NCBI GenBank assembly: GCA_038870975.1
Contig: JAVZJD010000002.1
Location: forward strand, 640,001 to 704,000
From: Candidatus Bathyarchaeia archaeon
Lineage (GTDB): Archaea; Thermoproteota; CALKCG01; B24
Length of the DNA stretch: 64,000 bases
Direction: 5' to 3'
Shown: positions 8,743 to 24,277 of the stretch, in pieces
How positions within the stretch are numbered: position 1 is the first letter of the stretch
Layout of the letters: each line of letters begins with the position of its first letter
Made by a program: the position numbers and the translations under genes
The notes under the pieces: model-generated
What the model was told of the DNA's origin: nothing
What the model saw: only the letters and a program-made list of their open reading frames with translations
Database searches by the model: none

Positions 8743-9143
8743 CCTTCAACTACCCCCTCAACTCTCACACGTCTTCCAACAGCTTCTGTTTGAAGACCCT
8801 CACTCCACGTAGACTTCTACTTCAAGCCCTTTGACTTCTCTAAGCATCTCCTCGAAGACCGCATGATTTAAAAACTCAAGTTAGCCTTTCCAACGACAAC
8901 GCGTAAGTCGCCAACGTAAACGGTTTTAAGCCTTAAGAAAACCTCATATGCCCGTTGGTAAGGCGAAGAGTTTAACAGAGGCGATTGGAAGCCTAGACTC
9001 ATCATCGTTTAAAAGCCTACGCATATCCTCCAGGCTAGGGGCATTTAGAAGTGCTTTTCAACCGTCTGCTCAACGTTCATCGACATATGGCTTAGCTATT
9101 TTAAGAGACCCTTCCACTCTATTTAAAGGCTCATACGCTTAAC

Positions 9144-9440: not shown

Positions 9441-9444
9441 AATA

Positions 9445-9810: not shown

Positions 9811-10010
9811 AAATAGCTATTACGCTATATACACTTCATACTCTTTAGGCTATTCCCATAAATTGAGCCTTTTCTTCCAAAATTGGGAATTTTAGCTCAA
9901 TTTGGAGTAGAAATTTCCAATTCGATGTGGAATCCTTCTAAAAGATATTCAAGAGAACCATTTGGAGGCTTAGCCTTTTATAAGCCTATGCCTAAAGTCA
10001 TTAGGGGTTT

Positions 10011-10199
10011 ATGGTAGAAGTTGAGCTTAAGGAGATATCCTTCACAGTGCTCTGCGACTGCGGTAGGAGTTTTACAACGGAAGAGTTTGAAGGGGAATGC
10101 CCATGGTGCGGTAGGATATACCATATAGAGGTTAGGGGGAGTCGTGAGAAGGTAGAACTCTCTATCGAATTTGCTGGAATAGCTCCCTTAGAAAATTGA
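10011..10199 (+). CDS. Small Zn-ribbon protein
   Basis: CDCG...CPWCG. Confidence 0.55.
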   Translation: MVEVELKEISFTVLCDCGRSFTTEEFEGECPWCGRIYHIEVRGSREKVELSIEFAGIAPLEN

Positions 10200-10434
10200 A
10201 CTCCCCATTCAACTCGTAAACCCTACTCGTAGGACTCACTTGAACCTCTCTAACCAAGCCAATACTTACGAGCTTCTCCAAGTATCTTCGAACGCTCTTA
10301 TGGTCCATTCCAACAGCCCTAGAGAGCGCCCTCAAATTCACAGCCTCCCTTGAGGCTAAAACCCTTAGAATCTTAAACCTAGCGTCTTCCGAGTATACGA
10401 GGTGGAAGACTCTAAGCAGTTCTTCAGAAGACAT
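10162..10434 (-). CDS. ArsR-like winged-helix regulator
   Basis: RFKILRVL..NLRALSRAVGMDHKSVRRYLEKLVSIGLV; start at ATG 10434. Confidence 0.7.
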   Translation of the reverse strand: MSSEELLRVFHLVYSEDARFKILRVLASREAVNLRALSRAVGMDHKSVRRYLEKLVSIGLVREVQVSPTSRVYELNGEFNFLRELFQQIR

Positions 10435-11578
10435 GAATAAATATTCTTTAGCGAAAATATATAAGTTTAACCGTATCAGCTTGAGAAAAATCAACGCATT
10501 TTTTAAACAAAAAGCTATCAAAAACTAGAGGCGCCTCAAATAAAATTCCAATCTACCTAAATACTTTCAACCTACTGACTAACCCATGTGTTCCTTTAAA
10601 CTCGAGCCGCCGAATTCCAAGGTGAAGCCAAGCCTTTTCTAGGCAGGGATTTAGACGTATCCGTTGAAGTCGAAGGGGGCTCAAAGAAAACGCCGATCAT
10701 GTTTAATTTTGCTGTTGCATCTATAGAGAGGATTGAAGGAGAAATGGTTATCATCGGCTAAAAGAAGTATATGATAGTATAGTGGTTGTTCAGTTTGATA
10801 GATTAACACACCGCCGATCCTTCAGATTTCCAGTGTGCTTCTTCTTTTTACAGAAAGTTGAAGCAGATGGAGCTTTTCCAACAGAATCCTCCAATATCTA
10901 CTTATTTTATATTATTATATTATGCAAGGGGGGTGTTTCGCCCTCGCATCAAGTCCATTCAAAACACGATGGTCTATATGAATATAGAAAAAGCACCACT
11001 CCAAACGAAGGCCGATGAATTTCATTGTAAAAACGGAACCTTAATGTCCATAGTAAATTTTAAAGGCTTCTGTGGGCTGGGCTGTTTTATTTATTCATCC
11101 CCAACCTCTTATACACTATATATGGTTTTGTGAATAGCGGGATATGGAAAGACGACTAATATAAGCCCCATATAATATATTATATTTCTATGGTAGTGTC
11201 CGTCCGTCCGCTTTTCACGGAAAAATTTCCATAACATCAGATGGATAGTCGTCATGAACACAATAGTCATGTTCATGTTTTTTTCTTTCATTTTTGATGG
11301 AAAATACAGCTATTTTTTAAATAATGACTTTCCTTAAGTAAAAATATTTAATTATATATTTTACAGAAAATAAGTATAAAGGAGGTGAAATTTAAGTTAA
11401 TTCGTCATAGGGCTAGTTGCCGGCTAGCCTTCAGAAACTCAGAAATAAAGGAGGGCACCCACCATGAAAGAGTATATCCCTTTTATTATATAAATTTTTG
11501 GGATATACTCCATGTAAGCGGAAGATTCTCTAATTAAATTCATTTAAAAACAGTAGTGGTTTAGGTGTTAATTTACCA

Positions 11579-11767
11579 GTGTTGTTAAGGGCTTATCTTC
11601 ACCTAGAGAGCTTAGACTCTGAAACTATTTTTGAAAATGATAGGCTTTATCATAGGTATTATATGAAATTAAGGCGTTTTATAGCCTCTTTAGAGAAAAA
11701 AGGCTTAGTTGAGGTTTCTAAAATCGACGGTCTTTTATGGGTTAAGCCTAAGGTTGACTTGAGGTAA
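11579..11767 (+). pseudogene. Probable truncated wHTH-like mobile-element protein
   Basis: YMKLRRFIASLEKKGLVEV..DGLLWVKP looks like a wHTH wing; ORF ends abruptly at 62 aa. Confidence 0.3.
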
Positions 11768-11825
11768 TGTGATTGGAGTAGGTCAAGGTCAGAGGAAACT
11801 CTGTGAAGGAGGATTATGCTGAAGT

Positions 11826-11960
11826 TCAGTTTTTAGCTCTTCTACGCTTCTCACCTTTAACTTCATTGAGTAGCTTGAGGAACTCTCTAACCCAGTACGG
11901 TAGCTTCTCTAAGACCTCTGGGCTATAATCCTCTAAGCTCTTAGCCTTAGACCTCCTCAA
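11826..11960 (-). CDS. Small hypothetical protein (44 aa, not in ORF track)
   Basis: TTG start overlapping the upstream gene end; LRRSKAKSLEDYSPEVLEKLPYWVREFLKLLNEVKGEKRRRAKN. Confidence 0.35.
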   Translation of the reverse strand: MRRSKAKSLEDYSPEVLEKLPYWVREFLKLLNEVKGEKRRRAKN

Positions 11961-12387
11961 GCTTTAAGCTCACACTCCCACCCATCACATCAGGAACCCT
12001 GTACAACGCCACATACACGTTATGTCTCGGGATGTAGACGACCTCCAAGGTCTCTATCCTGGCGTTCTTCAAGCGGTAGCTGAGTTTTCGTATAGTTTCA
12101 CAGCTCTCCTTAGCATATTCTATGCGGTAGAGTATACGTTTTCGTTGAAGTCTGGTTGGCTTTGGAATAGCTGGACTATAAGTCCTAAGTGCTTCAGGGT
12201 TTAGAGTTACAGCCATGTTAAACATTAAAACTGAAGTATAACAATAGTAGAAAATCATCCTATATCTCTGTAGTAGAGCCTCGCTTACTGTCTTCTCGAC
12301 TTTAGGAGTAAAACCTGCTGGATACCGTTCTATTCTATATTGTCGTGGGGTTTCTATGTAGCTGAGCGTAGTCAGCTTCTTATACAT
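11947..12387 (-). CDS. Hypothetical protein (accessory region)
   Basis: 146-aa ATG-started ORF, no motif recognised. Confidence 0.45.
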   Translation of the reverse strand: MYKKLTTLSYIETPRQYRIERYPAGFTPKVEKTVSEALLQRYRMIFYYCYTSVLMFNMAVTLNPEALRTYSPAIPKPTRLQRKRILYRIEYAKESCETIRKLSYRLKNARIETLEVVYIPRHNVYVALYRVPDVMGGSVSLKLEEV

Positions 12388-13024
12388 TCCTATAGCTCAT
12401 ATTTGAAACCCTCCGTGGGATCCCTCATTTAGTCTAAGTTACTTCGGGATCTGGGATTGCCCATAGGCTACCCCCACTCTAATATAGATAGATGTAACCA
12501 CTTGCTTATAACGATATTGAACATTAGATTTATAAAAAAGACCCCATCCCTCAGTTAAATGTTACAGGATTCAGTAATTTTCCCTCACAACTACTGGTTA
12601 AATTAAACTAAAAACAGTAGAATAGAAGTTGGAAATTAACATAAAAGAGTAAAATAGAGAAGATTTAATGAAGTATTTTTCAAAGATTTTACAACATACC
12701 ATACACTTACCCACGTATCTTCTCAGCCTTAAAGTTAAAAAGGGGCTACTTCCAAACATTGGCAGGATTTAAACCCGATTGCAACCACGGCTAAAAGATA
12801 TCGTGTTATATTTCGAATAACATATATCATAATCCTTTCGCCTACCCCTTTTTAGAAGTATTCTATTAATTTTCAGATTTAGCGTACGAACTTAGGCTAG
12901 CTTAATTCTAGTTTATTTAATTTGATGAACTTAAGAATTTAAAAGGGGCTGAGGCTTCCATTGTTTTTACGTGGTTTCTGTTGAAACCATAATCGTTGAG
13001 TACTTTTCTCTAGTATTTTTCGAA

Positions 13025-14212
13025 TTACTTTGAAAGCTCTTTAAGCTTCTTAGCCAGTAGTGTTTTGAACTCTGGATCTTTCATTAGCATATCCATTATA
13101 TTGTCGGTCATACGTCTAATTTCTTCAAGCTCTAAGGCTACTCTAACGTCTAAGGCAAGCCCACATTTGATGCAGAATCTGGCGTCAAACTGGTTTGGCG
13201 TCTGACACCTAGGGCATAGTTTAGGCTTTAGCTTAGGCTCCGCCTCCTCGCACTTCTTAAGACCGTATATGCCTAGGACCGCATCATCTAAGTCCCTACC
13301 GGATAAATGGACGTATATGCTCGGCATTTCAGACCCTTGCTTCCATCCGAAGATTTGGTTCATCTGAGCCTCCGTGAGCTTACTGGCTAGAAAAGTAGCC
13401 CTGCTATGGCGTAGCTTGTGGGGGTGAATCTTCTTCCTAAGCCCAGCTCTCTCAGCGGCTACTTTAAGTACTTTAGCTAACGCTGGGTAGCTCATGGCTT
13501 TGCATCGGTTCACAGTTCCCATATTGACCCATAACGGTGCGTCTGACTTATTCTTCAGAGGGTGATTTTGAATCCAGTACATTAGATACGGTGTAGCTGC
13601 TACCACTATTACACGTCTAGCACCAGTCTTACCCTTAAGCGTTAGAGCCGCATAGCCTTCTTCAAACTTAACGTCTCTTATAAGCATAGAGCCCAGTTCA
13701 CCTATTCTAGCACCACTCTCGTAGAGTGTCATTATGAAAGCCTTATCCCTAGGGTTATCACACGCTTCGACGAGCTTCATAACCTCCTCCTCAGTCAAAA
13801 GATCCTCAGGAAGCAATTCATCCCTAGCCTTAAGCGTAGTCTTTATCCACTTAACCTCAGGTGGATACTCCTGATTGCCGCCTTTAAACCACTTGTAGAA
13901 CCTCTTTAAAGCAACCTTGTAGTCGTGCTTAGTCCAGGGGGAGTAATCGCTACGCTCTATGCGGTATACCAGACCCTTTATATCCTCCGCAGTAGCTTCT
14001 TCAAAGGGCTTACCCAACATATCGGATATACGCCTCAATATATCCAAGTACTTTGAAACTCTAATGGGCGTGATGCCTTCAGACAGCAGTTGCCTTTCAA
14101 ACTCAACTAGAAGCCTCTTATCACGCTTATCCATAGGGTTGTGAAGCCTAGATTCAGCCATCCTAAGCCTACCATCAGCATCGTGGATGTCTATCCTACG
14201 CTTCAAAACCAT
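13025..14212 (-). CDS. Tyrosine recombinase/integrase with C-terminal Zn ribbon (SNJ2-like architecture), intact
   Basis: YESGARIGEL (R), KGKTG (K), HKLRHSRAT (HxxR), FGW (W), SIYVH (Y); CPRC..CIKC; starts 46 bp downstream of the tRNA-Thr 3' end. Confidence 0.93.
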   Translation of the reverse strand: MVLKRRIDIHDADGRLRMAESRLHNPMDKRDKRLLVEFERQLLSEGITPIRVSKYLDILRRISDMLGKPFEEATAEDIKGLVYRIERSDYSPWTKHDYKVALKRFYKWFKGGNQEYPPEVKWIKTTLKARDELLPEDLLTEEEVMKLVEACDNPRDKAFIMTLYESGARIGELGSMLIRDVKFEEGYAALTLKGKTGARRVIVVAATPYLMYWIQNHPLKNKSDAPLWVNMGTVNRCKAMSYPALAKVLKVAAERAGLRKKIHPHKLRHSRATFLASKLTEAQMNQIFGWKQGSEMPSIYVHLSGRDLDDAVLGIYGLKKCEEAEPKLKPKLCPRCQTPNQFDARFCIKCGLALDVRVALELEEIRRMTDNIMDMLMKDPEFKTLLAKKLKELSK

Positions 14213-14247
14213 CTAAACAATATTCAACCAAAAAGGTGTATTTATAC

Positions 14248-14523
14248 TTATGGTATAAAGCCCCCGGCGGGATTTGAACCCGCGACCGTCAGCTTACAAG
14301 GCTGACGCCCTAACCGGTCTGGGCTACGGGGGCCTATATTTCTTTGAAACAGGCTTAAATTTAGAGTTTTCTCCTTTCTATCAGTACTAGTACCGGTACT
14401 AGTACTGATAATTAGTTCTTCAATAAGAGAGGGGATTGAAAGATTCCTATTTGACGCCTCCTCTTTTAAACGGTTATAGAGCGCCGTAGATATAGTTATA
14501 CATGTAAAACCTGGCTTAGGCAT
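14248..14523 (-). CDS. N-terminal fragment of split SSV1-type integrase, int(N)
   Basis: MPKPGFTCITISTALYNRLKEEASNRNLSIPSLIEELI (RHH-like) reads through the att repeat and tRNA; joins 21882-22711 in frame if the repeats recombine. Confidence 0.85.
   Translation of the reverse strand: MPKPGFTCITISTALYNRLKEEASNRNLSIPSLIEELIISTSTGTSTDRKEKTLNLSLFQRNIGPRSPDRLGRQPCKLTVAGSNPAGGFIP
14259..14333 (-). tRNA. tRNA-Thr(UGU), no encoded CCA
   Basis: Minus strand GCCCCCGTAGCCCAGACCGGTTAGGGCGTCAGCCTTGTAAGCTGACGGTCGCGGGTTCAAATCCCGCCGGGGGCT; stem TCAGC/GCTGA, loop CT-TGT-AA. Confidence 0.93.
14292..14384. repeat. 93-bp direct repeat, att site copy 1 (tRNA 5' half + 51 bp upstream)
   Basis: Identical to 22712-22804. 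Confidence 0.97.
14350..14372 (-). promoter_or_regulatory. Putative BRE/TATA promoter of tRNA-Thr (duplicated at 22770-22792)
   Basis: GAAAACTCTAAATTTAAG about 21-38 nt upstream of the mature tRNA 5' end. Confidence 0.55.
14379..14410. repeat. Perfect 32-bp palindrome at the inner edge of the att site
   Basis: TATCAGTACTAGTACCGGTACTAGTACTGATA equals its own reverse complement. Confidence 0.95.
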
Positions 14524-14587
14524 ATGTTTGAGAAAATCCTGAAAAAAAATAAAGGAATTTTTATCGAAAAAATGCAAGGACGGGCTG

Positions 14588-14932
14588 TTAGAATTTTCCA
14601 GACTGCGTGAGTTTTAACAGCTTCTGGTAAACCTCTCTGCCGTCTCTTTCAACAACTGTTTTTAAGAAGCTCTTTCTACTCTTAGGATTTAATGAAGTGA
14701 AGAGGTTTTTAAGCATTAAAGCCTTAATCTCCTCATTCTTCCAGTCTAACACTTTCCTGCTTAGAAGAACCGTATTCTCCAGCTTCATCATTATAAGTTC
14801 AAAACCCCCTTCTGTAGGAACATCATCAAATAGTTCGACTTCAACATTATTTAGATTTAAACCGTATTTTTCATTGAGATATGAAATCCAACCGTTAAAC
14901 CAAACCTCGAGAATTGGAAGCCTCTCGCTCAT
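14588..14932 (-). CDS. Hypothetical protein (element)
   Basis: 114-aa ORF, GGAGGTG RBS upstream. Confidence 0.6.
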   Translation of the reverse strand: MSERLPILEVWFNGWISYLNEKYGLNLNNVEVELFDDVPTEGGFELIMMKLENTVLLSRKVLDWKNEEIKALMLKNLFTSLNPKSRKSFLKTVVERDGREVYQKLLKLTQSGKF

Positions 14933-14938
14933 ACCTTT

Positions 14939-15274
14939 TCACCTCCATTCTTCGACGCATAATAGCTCTTTTATTTTCTTCTTTTCTTCAGCTATTTTTA
15001 AATGCTTGCAGCTTCCCCTGTATCGGAAGCCTGGGCATGTGCATGTTTTAGCCTTCAGATCGACATAATAATAAATGCCGGGTTTACTGAAGCTTTCAAC
15101 CGTCAGGATCCCGCTTTCATTCTTCACCTGGTCCACCTCCGCTTGTTGCTGAAGATCGGCTTGTTTAGGCTGTGGCGGCTTACCCGCCGGCTCGCGAATA
15201 TCCCACGGTTCAAACCTGCACCACCTGAAGAAAGTGTTGCAGAAGGTTTTATTTAAGCCTTTAGATGAAGACAA
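14939..15274 (-). CDS. SWIM zinc-finger protein
   Basis: YYVDL..KTCTCPGFRYRGSCKHL (CxC...CxH); start uncertain. Confidence 0.75.
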   Translation of the reverse strand: MSSSKGLNKTFCNTFFRWCRFEPWDIREPAGKPPQPKQADLQQQAEVDQVKNESGILTVESFSKPGIYYYVDLKAKTCTCPGFRYRGSCKHLKIAEEKKKIKELLCVEEWR

Positions 15275-15372
15275 AATTAATGGAAAAATATGGATTTTTA
15301 AAAAGACCCCTTTCTTCCCTTCTGCTTCAGATGAAGCAAAAGATTTAAAAGCTTGAAGCTCATCAATTCATT

Positions 15373-15540
15373 ATGATGAAGCCAGCCAGCCGATTGAAGA
15401 GAACCTCAATCTTTATAGTTGATGAAAAGCTGTGGGCTTGGGCGCACTATAGAGCGCGAGCTCTAGGCTTCAAAAGCGTAGCCGACTACATTTTTGAATT
15501 AATCCGACGAGATAAGGTCGAGGCGGAGAAAAAAGCCTAA
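15373..15540 (+). CDS. Ribbon-helix-helix regulator (55 aa, not in ORF track)
   Basis: MMKPASRLKRTSIFIVDEKLWAWAHYRARALGFKSVADYIFELIRRDKVEAEKKA; the only plus-strand gene called in the element. Confidence 0.7.
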   Translation: MMKPASRLKRTSIFIVDEKLWAWAHYRARALGFKSVADYIFELIRRDKVEAEKKA

Positions 15541-15683
15541 CTCTTCAACTCCATAAAACTCCATTAAAATTCATAATCTTCGAATTTTATGGTCGTTTTT
15601 ATGGTTGTTTTTTATGGTTGTTTAGACCCCCCCCTCCTAGTCGAGGAAATTAACGGATAGAAGCGGGGGAAAGCCTAAACCCT

Positions 15684-16124
15684 TCAAAGTTTCCATCCGA
15701 GTTTCAACAGTCCGCGCTCTAAGGCGTCTTTTATTGATTCTGGTAGGACTCTACGGATTAACTCGTTTATTTTTAAGCCAGACTTTGTCCCTGGATGTCT
15801 GACATACCTTGCGAATATTACCTCGCCGCCGATTTCAAACCTCAGGGCTCTGGCTCTACGCGGACGAATAATGTGTGGTCTCGAGCCGAACAGAAGCCAG
15901 CCTGGAGCCTCGAAGAAGACTCGAGACAGTCTATCGGATTCGTGGACAATCCTCACCTTCCCCTCCAGCCATCTGGTTTTTTCAAGCTCAGCAGCAATAT
16001 TATTGGCGACACTATGCGTAATTTCGGACCTTATAGATTTAATAACATCTTCTCTCAAGAATTTCACAAGATCAGGTAGATCTCTCAAATTTTTACCCTT
16101 CACACGAACCTCTACCTTAAACAT
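15684..16124 (-). CDS. HK97-gp10-like virion morphogenesis (tail completion/neck) protein
   Basis: FGSRPHIIRPRRARALRFEIGGEVIFARYVRHPGTK resembles the G(T/S)xPHxIxP..A.ALRF....F...VxHPGT signature of phage gp10-like proteins. Confidence 0.6.
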   Translation of the reverse strand: MFKVEVRVKGKNLRDLPDLVKFLREDVIKSIRSEITHSVANNIAAELEKTRWLEGKVRIVHESDRLSRVFFEAPGWLLFGSRPHIIRPRRARALRFEIGGEVIFARYVRHPGTKSGLKINELIRRVLPESIKDALERGLLKLGWKL

Positions 16125-16145
16125 GATATTTCTTCTTCACCTCCA

Positions 16146-16886
16146 TTAATTATAAATTGAAGCGGTTTTCTTTAAAGATTCTTTTTCATTTAACCGTAAT
16201 AAGTCGCCGCCTAGATTTCTTAGAAGCGTGGTTATCGGATTTAACTGTTTAATCGGTATTTTAAAGGCCTCACCGTATTTCAGCTTTTCAACCGTCATCT
16301 TCTCAACATCCTCTCTCTTAAGATAGCCCGATATCCAGGCATGTGTAAGCTTCTCGTTAAACCGTAGGAAGACATAAATATCTGCGTGATGCTGTTTAAA
16401 CCGTTCAACATTAACATAATAACATTCAGGGCTATTCTTTGATGATGAAGCCTTAACATCAATTTTAAGACTTCCAACTATAAAGTCGGCTTCACTTGAT
16501 TTTCCCTTCTTCAACTCGAAATCTTGAATTATTGGATGGTTCCAGACATGTTGGATTTTAAACTGATTAAGCGTCATATCGAAGACCTTTTCAGCAAGCC
16601 AGCCTAAGAGAAGATTTTCTTCTTCATTTTCTCTCCAATGTTCAGTTGATGGATATTTTCTAAATCTGGGTAGCAACTCCTTTAGAATGGCTTTAGCCTC
16701 TTTAAGTGTGGATTCTTCTATTTTATACTCAAGCTCACGCTTAATCATTTTCACAGCTATAAGCGGGTATCCTTTTAAACTGGGGTCATCAAAGTTGCCA
16801 CCAATTTCAAAATCCGTATATGTTAAAGGTTTTCTATCTTTTTTAAGGAAAGTCCGCAAACTTTGTTTTTCATCCCTTACAGCCAT
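16146..16886 (-). CDS. PD-(D/E)XK restriction-endonuclease-like nuclease
   Basis: GWLAEKVF (E helix) ... ADFIV ... IDVKAS, ADIYVF. Confidence 0.65.
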   Translation of the reverse strand: MAVRDEKQSLRTFLKKDRKPLTYTDFEIGGNFDDPSLKGYPLIAVKMIKRELEYKIEESTLKEAKAILKELLPRFRKYPSTEHWRENEEENLLLGWLAEKVFDMTLNQFKIQHVWNHPIIQDFELKKGKSSEADFIVGSLKIDVKASSSKNSPECYYVNVERFKQHHADIYVFLRFNEKLTHAWISGYLKREDVEKMTVEKLKYGEAFKIPIKQLNPITTLLRNLGGDLLRLNEKESLKKTASIYN

Positions 16887-19360
16887 TTTAATCGCCCACC
16901 TGGAAGCTTTACGATGAAAGCTTTTCTAAGCAGGCTGTTGAAAACTTCCAACGCCTTCTCTTCTCCCAAAATCTTTTTTAATTCATTAATGAAAAGAGGT
17001 TCCTCAGCGTAATCCTCCCCCGGAATCTTACAATTTTCAAATATACTCCTAATGTTTGAAATAATTGAATCAGTAGGGGGGTTTGGAGTTACTTTAGTTA
17101 CTGAAGTTACTTTAGTTAATAAGCCCCCCCGATTTAAAAAATCAATAGGCACATAAGCATATGAATAATTCCCCGTCCCTTTTTTAACGACGAAACCGAG
17201 GCTCGTTCTAATGTAGTTTGATATTCTTCGCGTCAAGCCTTTGACTTCTCCTTCGGTCATATCACCGTTTTTAAGACGCTCGGCGATATCCTTAATTCTT
17301 ATTGGAATTAAGTCCCTTTTTGATTTTTGTTGAGCCTCACTAACTTGAGTAACTAAAGTAACTTGAGTAACTTTTTCACTAGGGGCGAGGACTTTCACCC
17401 CTCCGCTTTCAGCGGCTATTTCCCTCATTGCCTTTGGCACCTCTTCCTCCAACCATGCATCTGGGTCTAGGCTTCTGACTTCCTCGGTTTTTAACTCGGC
17501 CAGTGATAATAGCGACTTTTTAAGCTCGGGGCTTTCAAAGACAAGCGTAAGCGGTAGAATCACTTGTCCTATTCGGGGCTCAACTTTTCCGTTGAAAGTC
17601 TCGCTAAACAATCCCTCTTTTTCCAGCTGCTTCGAAACCTCAACAATCCTCCTGTAGTTTCTGAAACGCCATAGAAGTAGCTTGTTTCTCAACCTCAACG
17701 CCTCCGCCTTGAATTGTTCACCTCTATAGAGCGGTGCCCTTCCGCTGCCCTTTCTCGATATGAAACTTATGCATCTTGATTCTAGGGCGATGTCCTTAAA
17801 CTCGCGGCGCGTGCAGAGAAGCTTAGGACCAAAGACATGGAAAGCCTCTACAAGCCTCGCGTTGTTCTCGTTGCAGCAACGATACCAGCCCTGCGATTTA
17901 GAAAACCCTATGTTAAGGATTTTAATGATCGCGGAGTATAAACTCGAGTCTGTGAAATCCGCCTCATCAATCAGTGCCGTTCCCCGCCATAAATCGAAGG
18001 TCCGCCTTATACTGGCTTCGGAGTCGCAACCCGCTAGAATCACCGGTCTATAGCATATGGAGCCGACCGTTTCAAGCCATGCTGTTTTACCACTACCCCA
18101 CCGTCCCTTAGCCCTCCGGTATGGAATCTGCGGCAGTGTATCGTATATCCATGTGAGAAACACATACACCGCGTCTAAAATTCTTTCAAAGCTATCAGGT
18201 TGCTCGTGCCATTTATTTAGAAAATCCATGACTTCGTTGAACAGCTTTTCGTCACTTTCATATTCCTCTGCCGTACTTGGAAGCATCACCTGCCCCGTTT
18301 CAACATCTTTATTCATTATTGGTTTATAGATGACATCTCCATCCTGAACCTCCTCAACTTCGCTTATGAATCCCCCTCCTAGATCGTAAACAGCAAATAA
18401 TGCTTTTCCATTTCGAAAAACCTCCTCAAGAATTTTCCCGTCGCTTAAAACAGCCGCGGGCGTGTAAACCACCTGTTTCCTCCTCACTTCGAATTTTCCG
18501 CTGAGTTTGCAAAGCTTCTCAAGGCTCTCATTGCAAATTCCTAATTCTTTCATTCCGCTACAACCATACTCATAACCATGTTTTCTAACGGATTCAAGAC
18601 ATGCTTTTACCTCTTTATCCTCTAGCGGAGGTTTATTCCGAGTATTCCATTCCTCCAACCTATTTAAAACCTCAAGTGGAGGAAGACTTCTAAAGTAGAG
18701 CCAATATGAGGCAAGTCTAACGGCAGCTTCATTACGCATACCCTCCTCAACACCATCCGCCAGTCTTCTAATGCAGGGGGGATCTTCAGAGTTTCCATGT
18801 TTAAACACACCCATTTCTCCGGCTCTAGTCCATACGACGGATTCCAGGTCGTCTACAACAGGTATTGACTGTAGTTTCCATGGGTTGTTGATAAACTCAT
18901 ATTTTACACCGGATGGATGAATGGATGGAGGGGCAACGACATAACTCCCCTCCGATTTAACATCCAGGTGGATCCCTGGTATTTTGAACGACTTCACCGG
19001 CTTGGATGTTCTGAAGTAAACATGTACACCCCTGGCGGTTTTCACAACAATGGTTGAATTCTTTATCTTTTCAAAGTTGAAAAACTTTTCGAAATATTGA
19101 AAGTCGTCGAAGTCGATTACAACCAGGTTTCCAGATATAGAGCCACAGACGACGCCTAAATTTATTCTCCCAGAGCCTAGCCATCTTTCAACTTCTTCAT
19201 CTGTTGCACACCTCTTCTGAAATTCGAGCCATTGAATTATCGGCTCTTTCGATCCATATCGTAGCGGTATAATACTGAATCCTAATCTTCTGTAAAGCTC
19301 TACATACTTTCTTAGTTCTTCTTTTCCTATATTCTCTAAATTTTCAACATTCAACGACAT
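16877..19360 (-). CDS. Replication protein: bifunctional primase-polymerase + PriCT + P-loop NTPase/helicase-like + wHTH
   Basis: GFSIIPL..SKEP, NLGVVCG..LVVIDFDD, KTARGVHVYF, YVVAPPSIHPSG; EGMRNEAAVRLA..WN.RNKPPL (PriCT); GRWGSGKT, LIDEAD. Confidence 0.9.
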   Translation of the reverse strand: MSLNVENLENIGKEELRKYVELYRRLGFSIIPLRYGSKEPIIQWLEFQKRCATDEEVERWLGSGRINLGVVCGSISGNLVVIDFDDFQYFEKFFNFEKIKNSTIVVKTARGVHVYFRTSKPVKSFKIPGIHLDVKSEGSYVVAPPSIHPSGVKYEFINNPWKLQSIPVVDDLESVVWTRAGEMGVFKHGNSEDPPCIRRLADGVEEGMRNEAAVRLASYWLYFRSLPPLEVLNRLEEWNTRNKPPLEDKEVKACLESVRKHGYEYGCSGMKELGICNESLEKLCKLSGKFEVRRKQVVYTPAAVLSDGKILEEVFRNGKALFAVYDLGGGFISEVEEVQDGDVIYKPIMNKDVETGQVMLPSTAEEYESDEKLFNEVMDFLNKWHEQPDSFERILDAVYVFLTWIYDTLPQIPYRRAKGRWGSGKTAWLETVGSICYRPVILAGCDSEASIRRTFDLWRGTALIDEADFTDSSLYSAIIKILNIGFSKSQGWYRCCNENNARLVEAFHVFGPKLLCTRREFKDIALESRCISFISRKGSGRAPLYRGEQFKAEALRLRNKLLLWRFRNYRRIVEVSKQLEKEGLFSETFNGKVEPRIGQVILPLTLVFESPELKKSLLSLAELKTEEVRSLDPDAWLEEEVPKAMREIAAESGGVKVLAPSEKVTQVTLVTQVSEAQQKSKRDLIPIRIKDIAERLKNGDMTEGEVKGLTRRISNYIRTSLGFVVKKGTGNYSYAYVPIDFLNRGGLLTKVTSVTKVTPNPPTDSIISNIRSIFENCKIPGEDYAEEPLFINELKKILGEEKALEVFNSLLRKAFIVKLPGGRLKWL
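17087..17372. repeat. Two inverted arrays of 9-bp-period iteron-like repeats (putative origin) inside rep
   Basis: AGTTACT at 17087, 17096, 17105 (+AGTTAAT 17114); AGTAACT at 17348, 17357, 17366 (+ACTAACT 17339). Confidence 0.7.
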
Positions 19361-19363
19361 TTT

Positions 19364-19951
19364 TCACCACTGTCCAATGAATGCTATCCTATTCTTTTTC
19401 TCATTCTTTCTTTCATTCTTTCTCTTCAACGGATTTCTAAAAACTTCCGTCAATTCTTCAAAGGTGGTAGGCTCTAAATCCGCATCCTTCAAGATTTCAT
19501 CTACTGGATAGTTTTCCAACATCTTCAGAAGGTTTTTCAGTTTTTCAACATTTTTATCAGTCACCCGTATTTTCCGAATTCTAAGCCACTTTTCAAGACT
19601 GGACTTATTCAACGGGCATTGGAAGTTGAAGCACCACTCCGCATCCTCACAGGAATCTTTAGTTACGACGATATCCCTGATTATCAAAACATGCATCAAA
19701 TTCCCTACCCTGTAGGGTTTTTTAGAATATCCGCAGATCCCTAAGTTTTGATAGCTTTTTCTACCGAAGCTTATTCCTCTAAAGTAAAGATTGGTCCATA
19801 CAACTGGGTAGAAAGCACCCCTAGATTCCATGAGAACACCTCCCGAAGAAGGGTCTGAAGAGGTCGAATTATGTTGAAGAAACTCCGAGGGCTTCGACCT
19901 TACACCCTTCTTCATTATATTATAATGTTTTAGCGGGTGGAAATTTTCCAT
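19364..19951 (-). CDS. Hypothetical Cys-containing protein (element)
   Basis: C..AEWCFNFQCP cluster; true start may be internal (MESRG, after GGAGGTG). Confidence 0.55.
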   Translation of the reverse strand: MENFHPLKHYNIMKKGVRSKPSEFLQHNSTSSDPSSGGVLMESRGAFYPVVWTNLYFRGISFGRKSYQNLGICGYSKKPYRVGNLMHVLIIRDIVVTKDSCEDAEWCFNFQCPLNKSSLEKWLRIRKIRVTDKNVEKLKNLLKMLENYPVDEILKDADLEPTTFEELTEVFRNPLKRKNERKNEKKNRIAFIGQW

Positions 19952-19987
19952 AAAAAATTTACACTTCCATACTTTTATCCATTAATT

Positions 19988-21094
19988 TTAATCTCGGAGA
20001 AACTCGTACTCGGCTTCATCTCTCCGCCGGTCTCTCAAGCCTAAAGCCTTCCTATACTCGTCGGGAAAAGGTGCTTTATAGTCTTTTAGCCAGTCTAACT
20101 CGCGGAGGCATTTCCATATCTGCATCCTATTTAAAGGCATACCTAGCGATATTTCATCTAGAAAGCTTTTCAAGTAGAATTTGAATGGAAGACCTTTAAA
20201 CTTCCTTTTTTGAAGCCATAAAAGCTCTCGGAAGAAGGCAGAAACCACTATGCTTTTCATGTTGTCTCCATTAAGAACGGTGAATTTTCGTAGGATTCTT
20301 GAGGTCCAAAAGAGCGCTTCCAAATAAATACCGGTTCTATTGACACCCCAGTAGGAAATCCTTAGGACTTCTGATGGACGGATGAATATGGATTCAAAGG
20401 GAAAAATTCCATATCCGAGGAGCCTCGGCAAAACCCTGTAGAAGCGCTTCAGCTCATATTCTCCGGCGATTATCGGTGTATATTCGGGTCGTCTCCATAA
20501 GGCTGTGTACAATGCGCCTGTTAAGATTAGTTCCGTCCGCTCGAGCTCGGGAAGCTTTAAACCAAGCTCTCTTCCAACAATGTATTTCGAATAGAAGTAG
20601 CGTCCAAGCGAGGAAAACTCTCCAATCTTAACCGGGTTTTTGAAAACCTTCTGAAGTATTTTAGCCATTTCTCTCAACCTTCTCTCCTCCTCGGGTAGAA
20701 CTACAATGGTTGAGCCGATTTCGAAGCCCATCAAGTCAAGCGTTTTCCTAGGCGTATACTTCCGCTTCAATTCAGCCCTTTCAACATCCATCTTAGCTTG
20801 TCTCTTTCTCCCCTCTGTGAAATAGCTGAGAAAGCTGTCATCCAACCCCGCCTGCTCAGGCGAATAGATTTCACGGTATTGTTTCTCCAGACATTGGAAG
20901 CACATTAACACGGGTTCTGTGAAAACACCGTCAACAAACTTATGGGCAATATGTAAGTCTGCTATCACAGGCTTAGCGCAGACCCCGCAGCGTCCCCCCT
21001 TCGGCTCATACGGAAGCCCAGAATTCCCCTCCTCTTTAAGCATTTCAGCTAAAACTTCAGTTAAACTTAAATATTCTCTTCTAGTTATATTCAA
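19988..21094 (-). CDS. Hypothetical protein with N-terminal Zn-finger/HNH-like motif
   Basis: CGVC...LHIAHK...LMCFQC; GAGGTG RBS upstream. Confidence 0.6.
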   Translation of the reverse strand: MNITRREYLSLTEVLAEMLKEEGNSGLPYEPKGGRCGVCAKPVIADLHIAHKFVDGVFTEPVLMCFQCLEKQYREIYSPEQAGLDDSFLSYFTEGRKRQAKMDVERAELKRKYTPRKTLDLMGFEIGSTIVVLPEEERRLREMAKILQKVFKNPVKIGEFSSLGRYFYSKYIVGRELGLKLPELERTELILTGALYTALWRRPEYTPIIAGEYELKRFYRVLPRLLGYGIFPFESIFIRPSEVLRISYWGVNRTGIYLEALFWTSRILRKFTVLNGDNMKSIVVSAFFRELLWLQKRKFKGLPFKFYLKSFLDEISLGMPLNRMQIWKCLRELDWLKDYKAPFPDEYRKALGLRDRRRDEAEYEFLRD

Positions 21095-21118
21095 ATGGGT
21101 CCACCTCGGTTATCATGA

Positions 21119-21148
21119 AGCCGTGGGTAGTGGGGGCTACCTACGGCT
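21119..21148. other. GC-rich 12-bp stem-loop between the copG-like gene and the next gene
   Basis: AGCCGTGGGTAG-tggggg-CTACCTACGGCT (one G:T pair). Confidence 0.6.
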
Positions 21149-21156
21149 GACCGTTC

Positions 21157-21324
21157 CTACTGTTGTTCTCCCTCTCCAATATTGAATGCGTTAAGCTCTT
21201 TGAGATAATTTGTAAGCGATAGCACTATGAACTGGCTTCTACTCATTTTCATCTTTTTTCTTACTCTTTCCACTATTTCATCAACACCTTTTGGTATAGT
21301 AAAAGCCCTTATTCTATAATCCAT
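21157..21324 (-). CDS. CopG/RHH regulator (55 aa, not in ORF track) heading the replication operon
   Basis: MDYRIRAFTIPKGVDEIVERVRKKMKMSRSQFIVLSLTNYLKEL...; GGAGGAGGTG RBS upstream. Confidence 0.8.
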   Translation of the reverse strand: MDYRIRAFTIPKGVDEIVERVRKKMKMSRSQFIVLSLTNYLKELNAFNIGEGEQQ

Positions 21325-21881
21325 TTTTCTCTTACACCTCCTCCTACTTTATAGTAAAATAAAAGCACTATTATAAACTTTGTTACAACGACACTTTTAG
21401 AAAAATTCACGATTTTACCGTAAAATTACGATAAGGCTCCATAGTTTTTCCATGAAGTTTACGACAAGCCCATTCTCGGCTTCTATAAAAAATACAGTAT
21501 TTGTACATTCTCAAGTTCCATCAAAATACAGTAATTTTCTAAGGTAACGAAACCTCCGTAAAACACCCTGGCTGAAGACAATTTTAACATTTTCATGTTA
21601 AAATCGAGGCTTCCCCCTTTCTGAAAAGCCTTAGCTGTTTACATTTGTATACAAAAATATAGCGGCTTATGGATTTCGCTTTAGTTTTTTATACCAGAAA
21701 TTTGTATGGGTTTTGTATGGACTCTTTTTATGGATTTTTAGACCCCCCTCCCCTCTTTAACCATTTTTTCGCCTTTTCTTTTGTAAAAAATTGCTCTTTT
21801 CAAACCTACCCCCTCCCCCGTATAGTTTTACCATTATAAATTACCCGTAGTAATATTTACGGCTGAAAAAATATGGGAAAA

Positions 21882-22682
21882 TCACAATAAGAGCTTCTCC
21901 TCCCAAGGCTTTACGGCTTTTAAAACTTTAGATCCAAGCTCTAATAAGTTGGGACGATAGTAGTATCGTGTAAATATTCCTGGCGGAATTCTCCCTTGGA
22001 GAAGATCAACAGCCTCAGTTGAAATATAGCCTCGCATGTATGTAGCCCAGGCTCTTCTGACTTCTTGAAGCTTCATCTTCAGGTTTTCACGGTGGAGCTT
22101 CTTCCTTAAAATATTATAGCTTGTTTCCTCAGTAAACTGTTCCAACGCTTCACGGACTGTTGGACTTATGAAGCTTAGATAGGCGTTCTTCTTAACCCTT
22201 AGAAACTCTTTAAACTTGAAGTGTTCCAACGCCCCGAATTCACGGTTATAGTATCCGTTTAAACCGTGCTGTTGGACCCTTCTAATCACCAAAAAGACCT
22301 CTTCAGCCCTTAAACCTGTGAGGAAGGCTAGGGTGGTGGGAAAGTAGAACCTCCATCCTAGGCTCTTCACGGCTTCAGCCCATTGGAAGAGATCATCTAA
22401 CTTAGAGCCGCCATTCAAGATATTTCTCAGGCTTTCAAAAGAGTTAGAGCTGTTCCATTTTAGACCATATTTCTGTTTAAACTCGTCGAAAAGCTCAGGA
22501 GTTCCAATATACCTTGTGAAGGCTCTAATAGCCTTGAGAAGATTAGCTTTTTGAAAACCGCTCAGATTGTGAATTCGAGGGTCATATTCAAACAACGCAT
22601 AAAAATATTTTTTTGCATAAACATAATTGTTTTTGGCATAAGTTTTCGAAAACCTACTGTTAAGCCAGCTTTTGAAATCCAT
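21882..22682 (-). CDS. C-terminal catalytic fragment of split SSV1-type integrase, int(C)
   Basis: TGLRAEE, RVKK, QEVRRAWATYM, VDLLQGR, FTRYY; frame stays open through att copy 2. Confidence 0.9.
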   Translation of the reverse strand: MDFKSWLNSRFSKTYAKNNYVYAKKYFYALFEYDPRIHNLSGFQKANLLKAIRAFTRYIGTPELFDEFKQKYGLKWNSSNSFESLRNILNGGSKLDDLFQWAEAVKSLGWRFYFPTTLAFLTGLRAEEVFLVIRRVQQHGLNGYYNREFGALEHFKFKEFLRVKKNAYLSFISPTVREALEQFTEETSYNILRKKLHRENLKMKLQEVRRAWATYMRGYISTEAVDLLQGRIPPGIFTRYYYRPNLLELGSKVLKAVKPWEEKLLL

Positions 22683-22711
22683 CCAGTTGAGCGATAAATC
22701 CTCGTAATGAT

Positions 22712-22804
22712 GCTTACAAGGCTGACGCCCTAACCGGTCTGGGCTACGGGGGCCTATATTTCTTTGAAACAGGCTTAAATTTAGAGTTTTCTCCTTTCTA
22801 TCAG
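22712..22804. repeat. 93-bp direct repeat, att site copy 2 (includes truncated tRNA-Thr 5' half, 22712-22753)
   Basis: Identical to 14292-14384; tRNA similarity stops just after the anticodon loop. Confidence 0.97.
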
Positions 22805-22906
22805 GGTATACCTGGGGTTAACCCTATTTGAAGAGCCGCCGTTTTGGACTTCAAAAGAGGCTACTTCCGTTTTAAGGCTTATGAATCTATAGTCTGGTTT
22901 CGGTAG
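22805..22906 (-). pseudogene. Relic of a second int(N) fragment outside the element
   Basis: Translates LPKPDYRFISLKTEVAS..., similar to MPKPGFTCITISTALY of int(N), in the same position relative to att; shortened and out of frame. Confidence 0.5.
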
Positions 22907-23033
22907 ACTTTTAGAGTTAACCTTAACAAAATTACCCTTAACTAGACCGTGTTCCATTTATCAATATAATTCTAGAGTTTAACAACATTTAAGTTATATT
23001 TTTTAGCTGTTTCGGCTTGATCCTCATCCATTG

Positions 23034-23263
23034 TTAGTAGCGGTCCTCCCTCACAGATTTAATAGAGAAGCCCTTAGGCACGTTTGCAGGTCCTTGCTTC
23101 CTCAATTCTTCAACAACCTTCTTAAGGATCTTCTCCCCCCTTATATTTTTCACGCGCTCAATAACGTAGTTTCTCAACTCCTCGAACCAGTTAACTTCAT
23201 CTTTCAACCTATCGAATTCCGCTTTAATTCCTTGGGTACTTTAAAACTTATTGTTTCCGACAT
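23034..23263 (-). pseudogene. Frameshifted VapB/CopG-type antitoxin, no adjacent toxin
   Basis: MSETISFKVPKELK /frameshift/ EFDRLKDEVNWFEELRNYV...VPKGFSIKSVREDRY. Confidence 0.65.
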
Positions 23264-23485
23264 AACAATTAAAAAGTATACAAAAAAGTATCTTAAAAGT
23301 TTACCAATAAGTAGACTAAAATATATTCATCTTTATAGGCACTAAATGTGCGGGATGGTGAACACATAGCATGATACATACCACAATCATAGTGATACCT
23401 ATAGCGGTCACAGTTTCAAGTGCTAAAAAGCTCTTCTTAAATACTACGATGGGCGAGATTCTACGAATAGTAGTCAAGTCGGTCA

Positions 23486-24277
23486 TCAAGATACTCCCAA
23501 TATGTTTTTTACATGCTGTATGTCTTCTTCGGCTTCTTCTCTACTCATGAACCCTATGCATACCGCTGAGACCCCCTTTTGTTCGAAGACCCATTTAAGC
23601 CAGTCGTATATCCGTCCTTCGTCGAATCTACCACTTGCTAGAGGCTTGATCGCTACAACCGGTTTCCTAGTCTTCTTTATAGCGTTCAGAATAGATTCTC
23701 GGTTGGGAAACATGTAGAACCCGATCTTGTTAACAGGAGTTGCAAATATGGAGACATCGTAATCTCCTTCATCGATCATAGTGAGCTTTTCACCATTGTG
23801 ACATGCAACACCAGGAATCATGCCGGCCTCCCTAATCATTTTCAAGTACTTCTCAAGCCCGACGGGCCTCCTGTTTTCAATAGGCCAGGAGTCTATCCAA
23901 CCGCCGTGTATACAGCATATTGGCGAGTATAAACCGTTCAGCATCTTAAGCTGTTTCTCCGTATCTTTAGGATCCCCTATCGTTGTACTTATGAAGATCA
24001 TCTCCTGCCCCGTGTTTCTCTCGGCTATTTTTATAGCCTCTATTAGCCTCGGCCATACTGGACCTAGAACGCCATATACGCCAAGTTTGATACAAAACTC
24101 GAAGACTCTAGCCACTCGTCTAGCCGTATAGTATCTTCTTATCCATCTATCTCTACCTATGCTTGTATGAGACCATCCGAGTAAACTGTTTATCCCTATT
24201 AGAAGCTTTGGCACTTCCACCCCTTCAACCTCTATCGTGGGGAAAACTGTCATATGACCATCTCCTGTAGGATTCAA
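23486..24277 (-). CDS. Aldo/keto-reductase-like TIM-barrel protein
   Basis: PKLLIG, GMIPGVACH, PVNKIGFYM, KPVVAIKPLASG, VCIGFMS..EAEE. Confidence 0.6.
   Translation of the reverse strand: MNPTGDGHMTVFPTIEVEGVEVPKLLIGINSLLGWSHTSIGRDRWIRRYYTARRVARVFEFCIKLGVYGVLGPVWPRLIEAIKIAERNTGQEMIFISTTIGDPKDTEKQLKMLNGLYSPICCIHGGWIDSWPIENRRPVGLEKYLKMIREAGMIPGVACHNGEKLTMIDEGDYDVSIFATPVNKIGFYMFPNRESILNAIKKTRKPVVAIKPLASGRFDEGRIYDWLKWVFEQKGVSAVCIGFMSREEAEEDIQHVKNILGVS

Follow-up and report, generated by a model that had tools for sequence, protein, structure and literature searches.

The window analyzed here, a stretch of 64,000 nucleotides from the genome of a hot-spring Candidatus Bathyarchaeia archaeon (contig JAVZJD010000002.1, positions 640,001 to 704,000), contains a discrete insertion of 8,420 bp at a tRNA-Thr gene (14292-22804 of the window), with exact direct repeats of 93 nt at both ends. 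We lean toward the interpretation that this element is an integrative plasmid with a captured viral gene for a tail-completion protein (TCP), which most plausibly interferes with, or rides on, an infecting tailed virus. A lone TCP gene on a plasmid-like element hints at conflict or hitch-hiking with a head-tailed virus.

The two copies of the repeat, identified through a repeat search, are spaced 8,420 nt apart (attL, 14292-14384; attR, 22712-22804). The repeat consists of the 5' part of the tRNA-Thr(TGT) gene and the 50 nt upstream of it. This tRNA gene, the target of integration, was located with ARAGORN at 14258-14334 on the minus strand; its 5' 43 nt are within the att repeat. The unoccupied site is present in contigs from three other hot-spring studies, X2, X3, and X8, which connect position 14291 to 22712; exactly 8,420 nt are skipped, and 93 letters are common to both sides. 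A perfect palindrome of 32 nt, read from the sequence, extends across the boundary between att site and element (14379-14410). Its center is CCGG at 14394/14395, and the assembly unitig is broken at this palindrome (14355-14408 / 14381-22741). A preliminary description of this DNA had proposed a small integrated element with both ends defined. The element is indeed small and discrete, and the repeats and the empty site give its precise bounds; however, the interval assigned to it, 14588-21324, omits the att sites and both halves of the integrase.

The catalytic part of a split tyrosine integrase, Int(C) (21882-22682, minus strand, 266 aa), had a significant match to phrog_5127 (E = 1.6e-10), so that the integrase reported earlier is present, with its gene in two halves. 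The match of Int(C) to PF16795 (E = 0.0012, 19.3 bits) is below the Pfam cut-off. The RHH-like N-terminal part, Int(N) (14385-14523, minus strand), was recognized from the rebuilt circle junction. In the integrated state, the Int(N) frame continues through attL into the tRNA; in the circle, a single open frame comprises Int(N), the att site (31 codons), 10 further codons, and Int(C). The re-formed frame is open for 383 codons, or 353 aa counted from the first ATG, and the att site is located within the integrase gene. This is an SSV-type "suicidal" tyrosine integrase, with attP inside its own gene, which is split by integration. Suicidal integrases carry PF16795 and are divided into Int(N) and Int(C) (PMC8371274).

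The replication protein (16877-19360, minus strand, 827 aa) contains Prim-Pol and PriCT-1 domains and a C-terminal Walker A/B ATPase region, as the preliminary description had stated. It matched PF09250 (E = 1.7e-20), PF08708 (E = 1.3e-6), and phrog_1156 (E = 6.5e-26); the Walker motifs were read from the translation. Sister elements share the small architecture. In one of them (L005), the replication protein is 93% identical, the element adjoins a tRNA-Ala gene, and the integrase is different; further relatives are L025, L006/L007, and G003. A SWIM zinc-finger protein of 111 aa (14939-15274, minus strand), also noted earlier, matched PF04434 above the cut-off (E = 4e-4, 20.3 bits) and is kept in L005 and L025. 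The RHH genes were likewise present, but the RHH-like ORFs number three, not two, since Int(N) is one of them. The others are an RHH/CopG-like repressor of 55 aa (21157-21324, minus strand; phrog_7325, E = 1e-4; PF01402, E = 0.058) and the sole plus-strand gene (15373-15540), whose 55-aa RHH/CopG-like product was recognized from its sequence pattern. The latter had no direct family match in Pfam or PHROG; it is 89% identical in L005, and a 75% identical paralogue is found elsewhere in the genome.

The 246-aa protein (16146-16886, minus strand) has no family; homologs are encoded by the sister elements and by two genomes from the host genus, G003 and G004. It had been called a nuclease; this label rests on a PD-(D/E)xK-like motif seen by eye, and no tool backed it. 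Three proteins are without a recognizable family, as claimed. The gene for the 114-aa protein (14588-14932, minus strand), which had no match in family searches, is variable; L005 has a 166-aa ORF in its place. A Cys-rich ORF of 195 codons with a basic C-terminal tail (19364-19951, minus strand) most likely starts at M41 (position 19831), which gives a protein of 155 aa. The 368-aa protein (19988-21094, minus strand) has an N-terminal CxxC..CxxC zinc-ribbon-like motif, and the remainder is predicted to be all-alpha; only four close homologs were found, and the AF2 model has a pLDDT of 43. A weak Atlas hint (0.78-0.80) that this protein is a TFIIB relative received no backing from hhalign comparisons to the TFBs of the host. 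Three tandem iterons of 12-13 nt adjoining a G-run (15585-15623, repeat family D3) are candidate binding sites for Rep or a regulator; they are kept in L005 and L025, and a similar motif recurs at 21701-21754. A non-coding control region of 557 nt with short direct and inverted repeats (21325-21881) may contain the origin or promoters.

The 146-aa protein (15684-16124, minus strand) is a real but atypical member of the TCP family, which includes HK97 gp10, lambda gpZ, SPP1 gp16.1, and 80alpha gp51. It had no direct HMM match in Pfam or PHROG, and the assignment is based on transitive and structural evidence. A phmmer search retrieved 1022 matches at E<=1e-3; 48 of 53 homologs matched phrog_5 and 32 of 53 matched PF04883, and the profile matched PDB entry 9mu2_P (E = 4e-6). 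The AF2 model (pLDDT 89, a confidence driven by the alignment) consists of a beta region between two long helices, one at each terminus. All BFVD matches of this model were tailed-virus proteins (E down to 1e-7), and the best match to a solved structure was the 80alpha TCP (9mu2_P, Z 7.3 over 96 residues in VIA). The earlier reading of this protein as HK97-gp10-like, made from a sequence motif, is borne out, as is its structural likeness to virion proteins. The 80alpha protein gp51 has been equated with HK97 gp10, lambda gpZ, and SPP1 gp16.1, and assigned to the neck interior, together with the DNA end and the tape measure (Kizziah et al., PMC11661146).

The TCP keeps 27 of the 35 well-conserved columns of the family, including all the invariant ones, and 22 of the 24 conserved columns in the beta-domain. 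The N-terminal hallmark motifs (P, the G of RTG, and YA) are gone; the family positions P..RTG.L and YA..VE.GT are altered or deleted. A core of 33 aa is identical at 31 positions to the core in L014, a virus contig from a Bathyarchaeia MAG, yet 22 of 102 sites differ in the DNA, which indicates purifying selection on the core after the two lineages diverged. Because the conserved segment helped to find the homologs, the argument from the retained core is somewhat circular. In the phylogeny, the TCP is on a long terminal branch whose position the tree does not resolve and which points to no particular donor. This variant is known from one strain only; L001 has an identical copy, but this contig was probably assembled from the source sample.

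The TCP gene is part of an accessory cassette of 558 bp (15646-16204, minus strand), which comprises a new 3' end of 17 codons for the 246-aa gene, the ribosome-binding site, and the TCP gene with the 38 nt that follow it. The cassette was missing from both fetched sisters (L005 and L025), where blastn gave identical breakpoints (16204/15646) and about 25 nt take its place. A third variant, in an X8 contig, also lacks it, with nearby breakpoints (15556 joined to 16204, with 106 other letters between them). The TCP gene is therefore not part of the core of these elements. Its ORF is full-length, with a ribosome-binding site (GGAGGTGA) 12 nt upstream, and follows the preceding gene after 21 nt in the same orientation. 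This stretch was not contained in any RNA run.

The contexts of related TCP genes were those of tailed viruses. In L015, the TCP gene is followed by those for tail tube and tape measure; G001 and G002, proviruses from the same archaeal family, encode TerL, portal, major head protein, adaptor, and TCP, and continue to the tape measure. The TCP gene of L002, a virus-like contig, likewise comes after a replication/recombination block. Within the element, capsid, terminase, and portal families had no match, and neither did Terminase_6N, Phage_capsid, or Phage_portal in the whole 1.85-Mb genome, which agrees with the reported lack of capsid and terminase. No packaging determinant (TerS, capsid-size, or cos/pac-like) was recognized in the element, and a comparison to the sampled virus loci revealed no non-coding or cos/pac-like similarity. 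The preliminary description had suggested searching for a co-occurring provirus with a related gp10, for the element in viromes, and for CRISPR spacer matches. No helper provirus was found in the 1.85-Mb genome, no virome record turned up, IMG/VR contained no relative of the replication protein, and none of the 161 CRISPR spacers of the host connects it with the element or with the sampled viruses. The depth of the element in the source sample equals that of the chromosome, with no excess copy.

We suggest that the element is plasmid-like and integrative, with a replicon of the prim-pol/PriCT/ATPase type, regulators of the RHH class, and an SSV-type tyrosine integrase. Its circular form recombined at the 5' half of the tRNA-Thr gene, an event that separated Int(N) from Int(C); the tRNA was preserved together with the 50 nt on its promoter side. 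The cassette entered the replication operon at its 3' end, in this lineage only, and brought in a TCP gene that stems from a head-tailed virus of archaea. The TCP gene has its own ribosome-binding site and presumably shares a transcript with the rep genes. In this reading, the element itself makes no virion, and the TCP may act as an accessory function on the tail or neck assembly of an infecting tailed virus, most likely as a poison or decoy subunit that would reduce virus yield. The TCP has kept the conserved beta-domain and lost the N-terminal hallmark motifs, and this altered motif pattern would fit a "dominant-negative decoy" slightly better than an "adaptor".

A somewhat unlikely alternative is that illegitimate recombination with a tailed virus infecting the same cell recently left the TCP gene in the plasmid as a by-product, which would have no function in the element and be destined to decay. 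Its restriction to a single lineage, the hallmarks already lost, the failure of direct HMMs to detect the protein, and the long terminal branch are all consistent with a neutral passenger. However, the intact ORF with its ribosome-binding site and close spacing, the retention of every invariant column, and the confident, though alignment-driven, structural model argue against such a passenger. That the element is an autonomous small archaeal virus, with the 368-, 155-, or 114-aa ORF encoding its capsid protein, is very improbable. None of the three could be assigned to a family, and the model of the 368-aa protein is too poor to classify; but the translations include no small hydrophobic protein of capsid type, the predicted zinc ribbon and all-alpha fold resembles neither HK97 nor jelly-roll proteins, albeit at low confidence, and neither a PHROG structural match nor an IMG/VR relative of the replication protein was found. 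The least credible explanation, already contradicted, is that the element is what remains of a larger head-tailed provirus in which deletions spared a single morphogenesis gene, a possibility raised in the preliminary description. A lone virion gene beside replication genes, as in the arrangement of L002, could suggest such a remnant, but the att repeats are exact, the empty site is precise, and the integrase frame closes over the circle junction. Moreover, the sisters are equally small, with the same gene order at other tRNA sites, and relative to them the TCP gene is an insertion and not a leftover.

The preliminary description had preferred a satellite over a plain plasmid. We consider it improbable that the element is a true satellite, excised or replicated upon infection by a helper and packaged in helper-made capsids, whether as concatemers or, in small capsids, as monomers, with the TCP adapting the tails or necks of the helper. 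The gene set (integrase, RHH regulators, and primase-helicase) is satellite-like, and the lone gp10 homolog is an intact virion-family gene with a constrained core; this part of the claim stands. Tailed proviruses occur in the same archaeal family, and there are precedents in pSSVx, a pRN-type plasmid with two fusellovirus genes that is packaged by SSV2 (bioRxiv 10.1101/2025.02.15.638363), and in NMV2S, a plasmid-derived putative satellite of an Asgard siphovirus (bioRxiv 10.64898/2026.08.12.739948). The claim is weakened by the absence of the TCP gene from the core, of recognized packaging functions or shared non-coding sequence, of a helper in the genome, and of IMG/VR relatives of the replication protein. 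The split integrase is also an obstacle to excision (PMC8371274). With 8.4 kb, the element is much smaller than the genomes of the sampled tailed viruses and proviruses, as inferred from the module sizes in L056 and L026. A TCP works on the tail side and provides no packaging specificity; we know of no route by which a tail-completion protein leads to encapsidation.

The plasmid interpretation places the element close to pSSVx and pSSVi, the satellite plasmids of the fuselloviruses SSV1/SSV2 in Saccharolobus (summarized in bioRxiv 10.1101/2025.02.15.638363 and PMC8371274). Like these, it is a small plasmid-type replicon from an archaeon whose replication protein is of the prim-pol type. It shares with pSSVi the SSV-type integrase and integration in a tRNA gene, and with pSSVx the combination of a plasmid and captured virus genes, a few of which set pSSVx apart from plain pRN plasmids. 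However, the captured gene is from a head-tailed virus here and from a spindle-shaped virus in pSSVx, the host belongs to a different archaeal lineage, and helper dependence and packaging, demonstrated for pSSVx and pSSVi, would be putative for this element. The SSV-type and pTN3/pT26-2-like suicidal integrase elements (PMC8371274) also have attP in the integrase gene, long exact att repeats, a tRNA integration that splits Int(N) from Int(C), and an in-frame ATG that starts Int(C); the element differs in its PF16795 match below the cut-off, its target (the 5' half of the tRNA plus 50 nt upstream), and its RHH-like N-terminal part.

The model of the 146-aa protein has the helix-beta-helix layout of HK97 gp10, lambda gpZ, SPP1 gp16.1, and 80alpha gp51 (PDB 9mu2 chain P). 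In contrast to known TCPs, its gene is alone in a replication operon and not between adaptor and tail-tube genes, and the protein departs from the family in having no direct HMM match and at the P..RTG.L and YA..VE.GT positions. Bacterial phage satellites (P4-like, PICI, cf-PICI, and PLE) are islands of 8-15 kb, some with a few morphogenesis genes, that resemble the element in combining integrase, regulators, and primase/helicase. Their hijacking genes form a conserved core that includes packaging or capsid-size functions, whereas the single virion gene of the element is an accessory cassette with no recognized packaging function. NMV2S, for which dependence on a head-tailed virus of archaea has been proposed, is likewise plasmid-derived and small, with an Arc/RHH-like regulator and a helicase-primase (bioRxiv 10.64898/2026.08.12.739948). 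At 3.8 kb, NMV2S is episomal, with high coverage, concatemers, and no structural gene reported, whereas the element described here is integrated, has the depth of the chromosome, and encodes a TCP.

The element was inserted at a tRNA-Thr(TGT) gene (window 14258-14334, minus strand) and is flanked by an exact 93-nt direct repeat, at 14292-14384 and 22712-22804, with a spacing of 8420 nt. The repeat consists of 43 nt of the 5' part of the tRNA gene and the 50 nt upstream of it. We aligned Logan contigs from four hot-spring sequencing runs to positions 13000-24000. In X2, X3, and X8, three runs that belong to three other studies, a contig passes from 14291 to 22712, skipping exactly 8420 nt, with 93 shared letters; the contig depths at this joint are 57, 61, and 25, respectively. 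The joint is the unoccupied att site of related strains, and its presence in three runs demonstrates that the insertion was precise. In run X1, which is probably the source, the element forms a single unitig of 8361 nt with a depth of 19.6, as compared to 22 and 19.3 for the flanks, which gives no indication of extra episomal copies; only depth is informative here, as Logan contigs are built on 31-nt words and a circle junction across the 93-nt att is not resolvable. The depth of the att unitig, 59, is probably inflated by tRNA words common to other organisms. Of the sequencing runs listed as containing the element, none is an RNA run.

A second tyrosine integrase of 395 aa (13025-14212, minus strand; Phage_integrase, 2.3e-23, with a C-terminal double zinc ribbon) adjoins the 3' end of the same tRNA gene. 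The strains with the empty att site, whose contigs cover 13000-14286, also have this integrase, which therefore lies outside the 8.4-kb element. Its neighbors (9000-13000) are a low-GC stretch with small ORFs without assignment and a wHTH gene; this region may be the remnant of an older element. A perfect 32-nt palindrome (14379-14410) spans the boundary between att and element, where the assembly graph breaks; it encodes the residues STSTGTST of the N-terminal integrase half described below.

The circle junction (22711, att, 14385) was reconstructed by script. It contains a single open frame of 383 codons (353 aa counted from the first ATG) that runs through an RHH-like ORF (14523-14385), the att sequence (31 codons), 10 further codons, and the 266-aa catalytic part (22682-21882). 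The integrase matches phrog_5127 (1.6e-10) and, weakly, PF16795 (Phage_integr_3; E-value 0.0012, 19.3 bits against a cut-off of 27). The presence of attP inside the integrase gene, with the frame restored in the circle, is the signature of an SSV-type "suicidal" integrase. Such integrases carry PF16795, and integration separates them into Int(N) and Int(C), the latter often with an in-frame start (PMC8371274). The preliminary description had listed an integrase and two RHH regulators; the integrase stands, while one of the supposed regulators is part of the re-formed frame and is thus Int(N).

All genes of the element except one are encoded on the minus strand. The 827-aa replication protein contains Prim-Pol (PF09250, 1.7e-20) and PriCT_1 (PF08708, 1.3e-6) domains, and Walker A and B motifs are seen in its translation; no helicase family was matched in it. 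It combines the Prim-Pol, PriCT, and ATPase parts that characterize prim-pol plasmid replicons (pRN/pTN-like). A relative of this protein was sought in IMG/VR, and none was found; a metagenome scan recovered sister fragments again and nothing else. The other families recognized in the element are SWIM and RHH/CopG-like proteins. The plus-strand RHH gene has a 75% identical paralogue in the host genome near a tRNA-Phe (G000:C1:565115-565258), in an island in which, by eye, toxin-antitoxin-like genes (RelE/ParE-like, HEPN/nucleotidyltransferase-like, and PIN-like) are abundant.

The proteins of 114, 246, 368, and 155 aa belong to no family in Pfam, PHROGs, NCBIfam, or PADLOC. The last of these was read as a 195-aa ORF, for which a start at M41 is likelier, and an Atlas search gave no lead for it. 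Phmmer or profile searches of the PDB also gave no match for the 368-aa protein or for the 246-aa protein, whose label as a nuclease in the preliminary description no tool supported. The AlphaFold2 model of the 368-aa protein is poor (pLDDT 43); in it, a small beta part resembling a zinc ribbon precedes an otherwise all-helical chain. The possible identity of this protein as TFIIB-like (Atlas scores of 0.78-0.80) was dropped, as hhalign gave a probability below 1% against both host TFBs. No structural or capsid family was matched among the element's proteins in Pfam and PHROGs; at pLDDT 43, the model of the 368-aa protein is of too low quality for a judgment on a capsid fold.

The 146-aa protein (15684-16124, minus strand) was expected to be HK97-gp10-like, and this assignment is correct, but the protein is an atypical member. 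It has no direct match to PF04883, phrog_5, or NCBIfam profiles even at E-values of 0.1-1, and PADLOC was also blank. An exhaustive phmmer search returned 1022 proteins at E ≤ 1e-3, mostly of 130-160 aa, including 12 at ≤ 1e-10. Among the aligned homologs, 48 of 53 match phrog_5 ("tail completion or Neck1") and 32 of 53 match PF04883; the homolog profile matches chain P of PDB entry 9mu2 ("HK97 gp10 family phage protein") at 4.4e-6. This chain is gp51 of phage 80alpha, a tail completion protein equated with HK97 gp10, lambda gpZ, and SPP1 gp16.1, and located in the interior of the neck, where it touches the DNA end and the tape measure protein (PMC11661146). We refer to the 146-aa protein as TCP, for tail completion protein.

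With the homolog alignment as input, AlphaFold2 gave a confident model of TCP (pLDDT 89) in which a beta region lies between long N- and C-terminal helices. The preliminary description had made structural similarity to virion proteins one of its tests. In BFVD, all 14 source-named matches at E ≤ 1e-3 are tailed-virus proteins (best E-value 1e-7), and the weaker rows include entries named as HK97 gp10 family (2e-3 and weaker) as well as proteins from two viruses of archaea that are tailed. The best of 48,161 PDB representatives was again 9mu2 chain P, ranked first with a moderate score (Z 7.3, rmsd 4.7, 96 aa); Foldseek, however, returned no significant match for the model against the PDB.

In the beta-domain, TCP retains 22 of 24 conserved columns, every invariant one included, although this is the same segment that recruited the homologs. 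The N-terminal hallmarks P..RTG.L and YA..VE.GT are not present in their usual form: the P, present in 81% of the family, and the YA (74% and 72%) ahead of VE.GT are deleted, and R takes the place of the G of RTG (89%). These upstream alterations and deletions explain the lack of direct HMM matches.

The proteins most similar to TCP come from hot-spring metagenomes and one Bathyarchaeia MAG. Four loci (L014 and L059-L061) share a conserved trio of a 133-aa protein, TCP, and an ABC-type ATPase; a large terminase is encoded on L002, a virus-like contig of 23 kb, and in L015 the order is TCP, tail tube, and tape measure. Two genomes of the host's archaeal family (G001 and G002) each contain a head-tailed provirus whose module runs from a large terminase (phrog_2, 8e-47) through portal, major head protein, adaptor, and TCP to a minor tail protein, the same ABC-type ATPase, tape measure, and tail proteins. 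The lineage of the host is thus infected by tailed viruses. Head-tailed proviruses from the same archaeal family and order are located at G001:C12:6300-26200 (L056, which has the canonical TCP module), G002:C30 (L057), and G008:C13 (L058). The head protein of their module has 630 aa and is possibly a protease-capsid fusion. The ABC-type ATPase (phrog_11143/phrog_293) lies inside the provirus tail module and also flanks TCP in L002, L014, and L060. Apart from TCP, no gene of the element has a homolog in the sampled proviruses.

The 33-residue core of TCP shares 31 residues with that of L014 despite 22 differences in 102 nucleotides, which shows that purifying selection has acted on the core since the two diverged. 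In a quick tree, the TCP of the element is placed on a long, unresolved branch, and the donor cannot be named.

In L005, a sister element whose replication protein is 93% identical and which adjoins a tRNA-Ala and has a different integrase, the sequence aligns with window 19982-16204 and then with 15646-14938, with about 25 nt in place of the window's 558 nt. Both breakpoints are the same in L025, another sister (replication protein 97% identical). A contig from run X8 passes from 15556 to 16204 with 106 other letters between, and the TCP cassette is absent. The 558 nt supply the 246-aa gene with a new end of 17 codons, followed by a ribosome-binding site (GGAGGTGA) located 12 nt ahead of the TCP ATG, the TCP gene itself, and 38 nt of downstream sequence. 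Within the same genus, less closely related versions of the replicon (G003) also lack the TCP gene, and no TCP variants at 61%-99% identity were found in a collection of 5.8 billion proteins. Within the element, the gene follows the replication genes and is not part of a head-tail joining or tail module. The TCP gene is an accessory cassette and is not core to the element family.

The cassette ends exactly at an iteron and G-run motif (15585-15623, after the TCP gene) that is repeated after the integrase gene (21701-21754). Both sites are conserved in the sister elements; the coincidence with the cassette end suggests a possible role of the motif as a site of recombination or replication. The sister elements L005 (6352-6427) and L007 (62-916), with replication proteins 93% identical to that of the element, are integrated beside tRNA-Ala(TGC). 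Both carry an unrelated 284-aa gene in the integrase position, which indicates that the integration module was swapped within the family.

These data establish that the element is integrative and plasmid-like, has precise boundaries, and combines a split integrase with a prim-pol replicon; in one lineage, it captured a tailed-virus TCP gene. The preliminary description had proposed a satellite of a head-tailed virus. In favor of this, the island is small, includes the combination of integrase, regulator, and own replication initiator that is expected of satellites, and contains the gp10-like gene. However, helper-exploiting genes of satellites are conserved across the family, and the TCP cassette is missing from L005, L025, and the X8 contig; no packaging determinant of the cos/pac, TerS, or capsid-redirection kind was recognized in the family searches, and comparison of non-coding sequence with the virus loci sampled here gave no match. 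We know of no route by which a few-copy neck component on the tail side, such as TCP, would lead to encapsidation. The co-occurring helper provirus and CRISPR matches that had been looked for did not appear: the host genome (92.9% complete) contains no second TCP and no match to Terminase_6N, Phage_capsid, or Phage_portal, and none of the approximately 161 spacers in its three CRISPR arrays (G000 C1:907208-908581, C2:445544-450217, and C2:453382-458001; repeats of 24-26 nt) matches the element or any fetched virus locus. Precedents nevertheless keep a nascent satellite alive as a reading: pSSVx is a plasmid with a few captured virus genes that later became a packaged satellite (10.1101/2025.02.15.638363), and the Asgard element NMV2S is a satellite candidate (10.64898/2026.08.12.739948).

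Most likely, TCP is an accessory gene that acts on the neck or tail assembly of an infecting virus. It probably does so as an interfering decoy, as suggested by the retention of the beta-domain together with the loss of the hallmarks. We rank a neutral passenger gene second, and a true satellite third. A provirus remnant or an autonomous virus comes last and is effectively excluded or unsupported. The broader proposal, that a plasmid-like element uses a remodeled TCP to parasitize or poison a head-tailed archaeal virus, we consider tentative and rather less probable than its negation. As the function is inferred from one strain, the finding is a lead and not a discovery; the sister elements with and without the cassette offer a natural comparison, which makes the question testable.

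To our knowledge, archaeal virus satellites have been shown experimentally only for spindle-shaped viruses (pSSVx and pSSVi). For head-tailed archaeal viruses, the single satellite candidate that we found, NMV2S, was described in a 2026 preprint and has no structural gene (10.64898/2026.08.12.739948). If the proposal is true, the element would be the first satellite of an archaeal tailed virus with a neck gene, or would reveal a new way for a plasmid to counter viruses, with a decoy subunit directed at a neck component that is present in few copies. A plasmid with a freshly acquired neck gene would capture the first step from plasmid to satellite, or a plasmid-borne decoy defense. We found no paper describing a lone remodeled TCP gene in such an element. 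The element itself is a further example of the integrative plasmids that combine a suicidal integrase with a prim-pol, whose range it extends to this hot-spring lineage, and its lone remodeled TCP gene is a new turn on the plasmid-virus hybrid theme.
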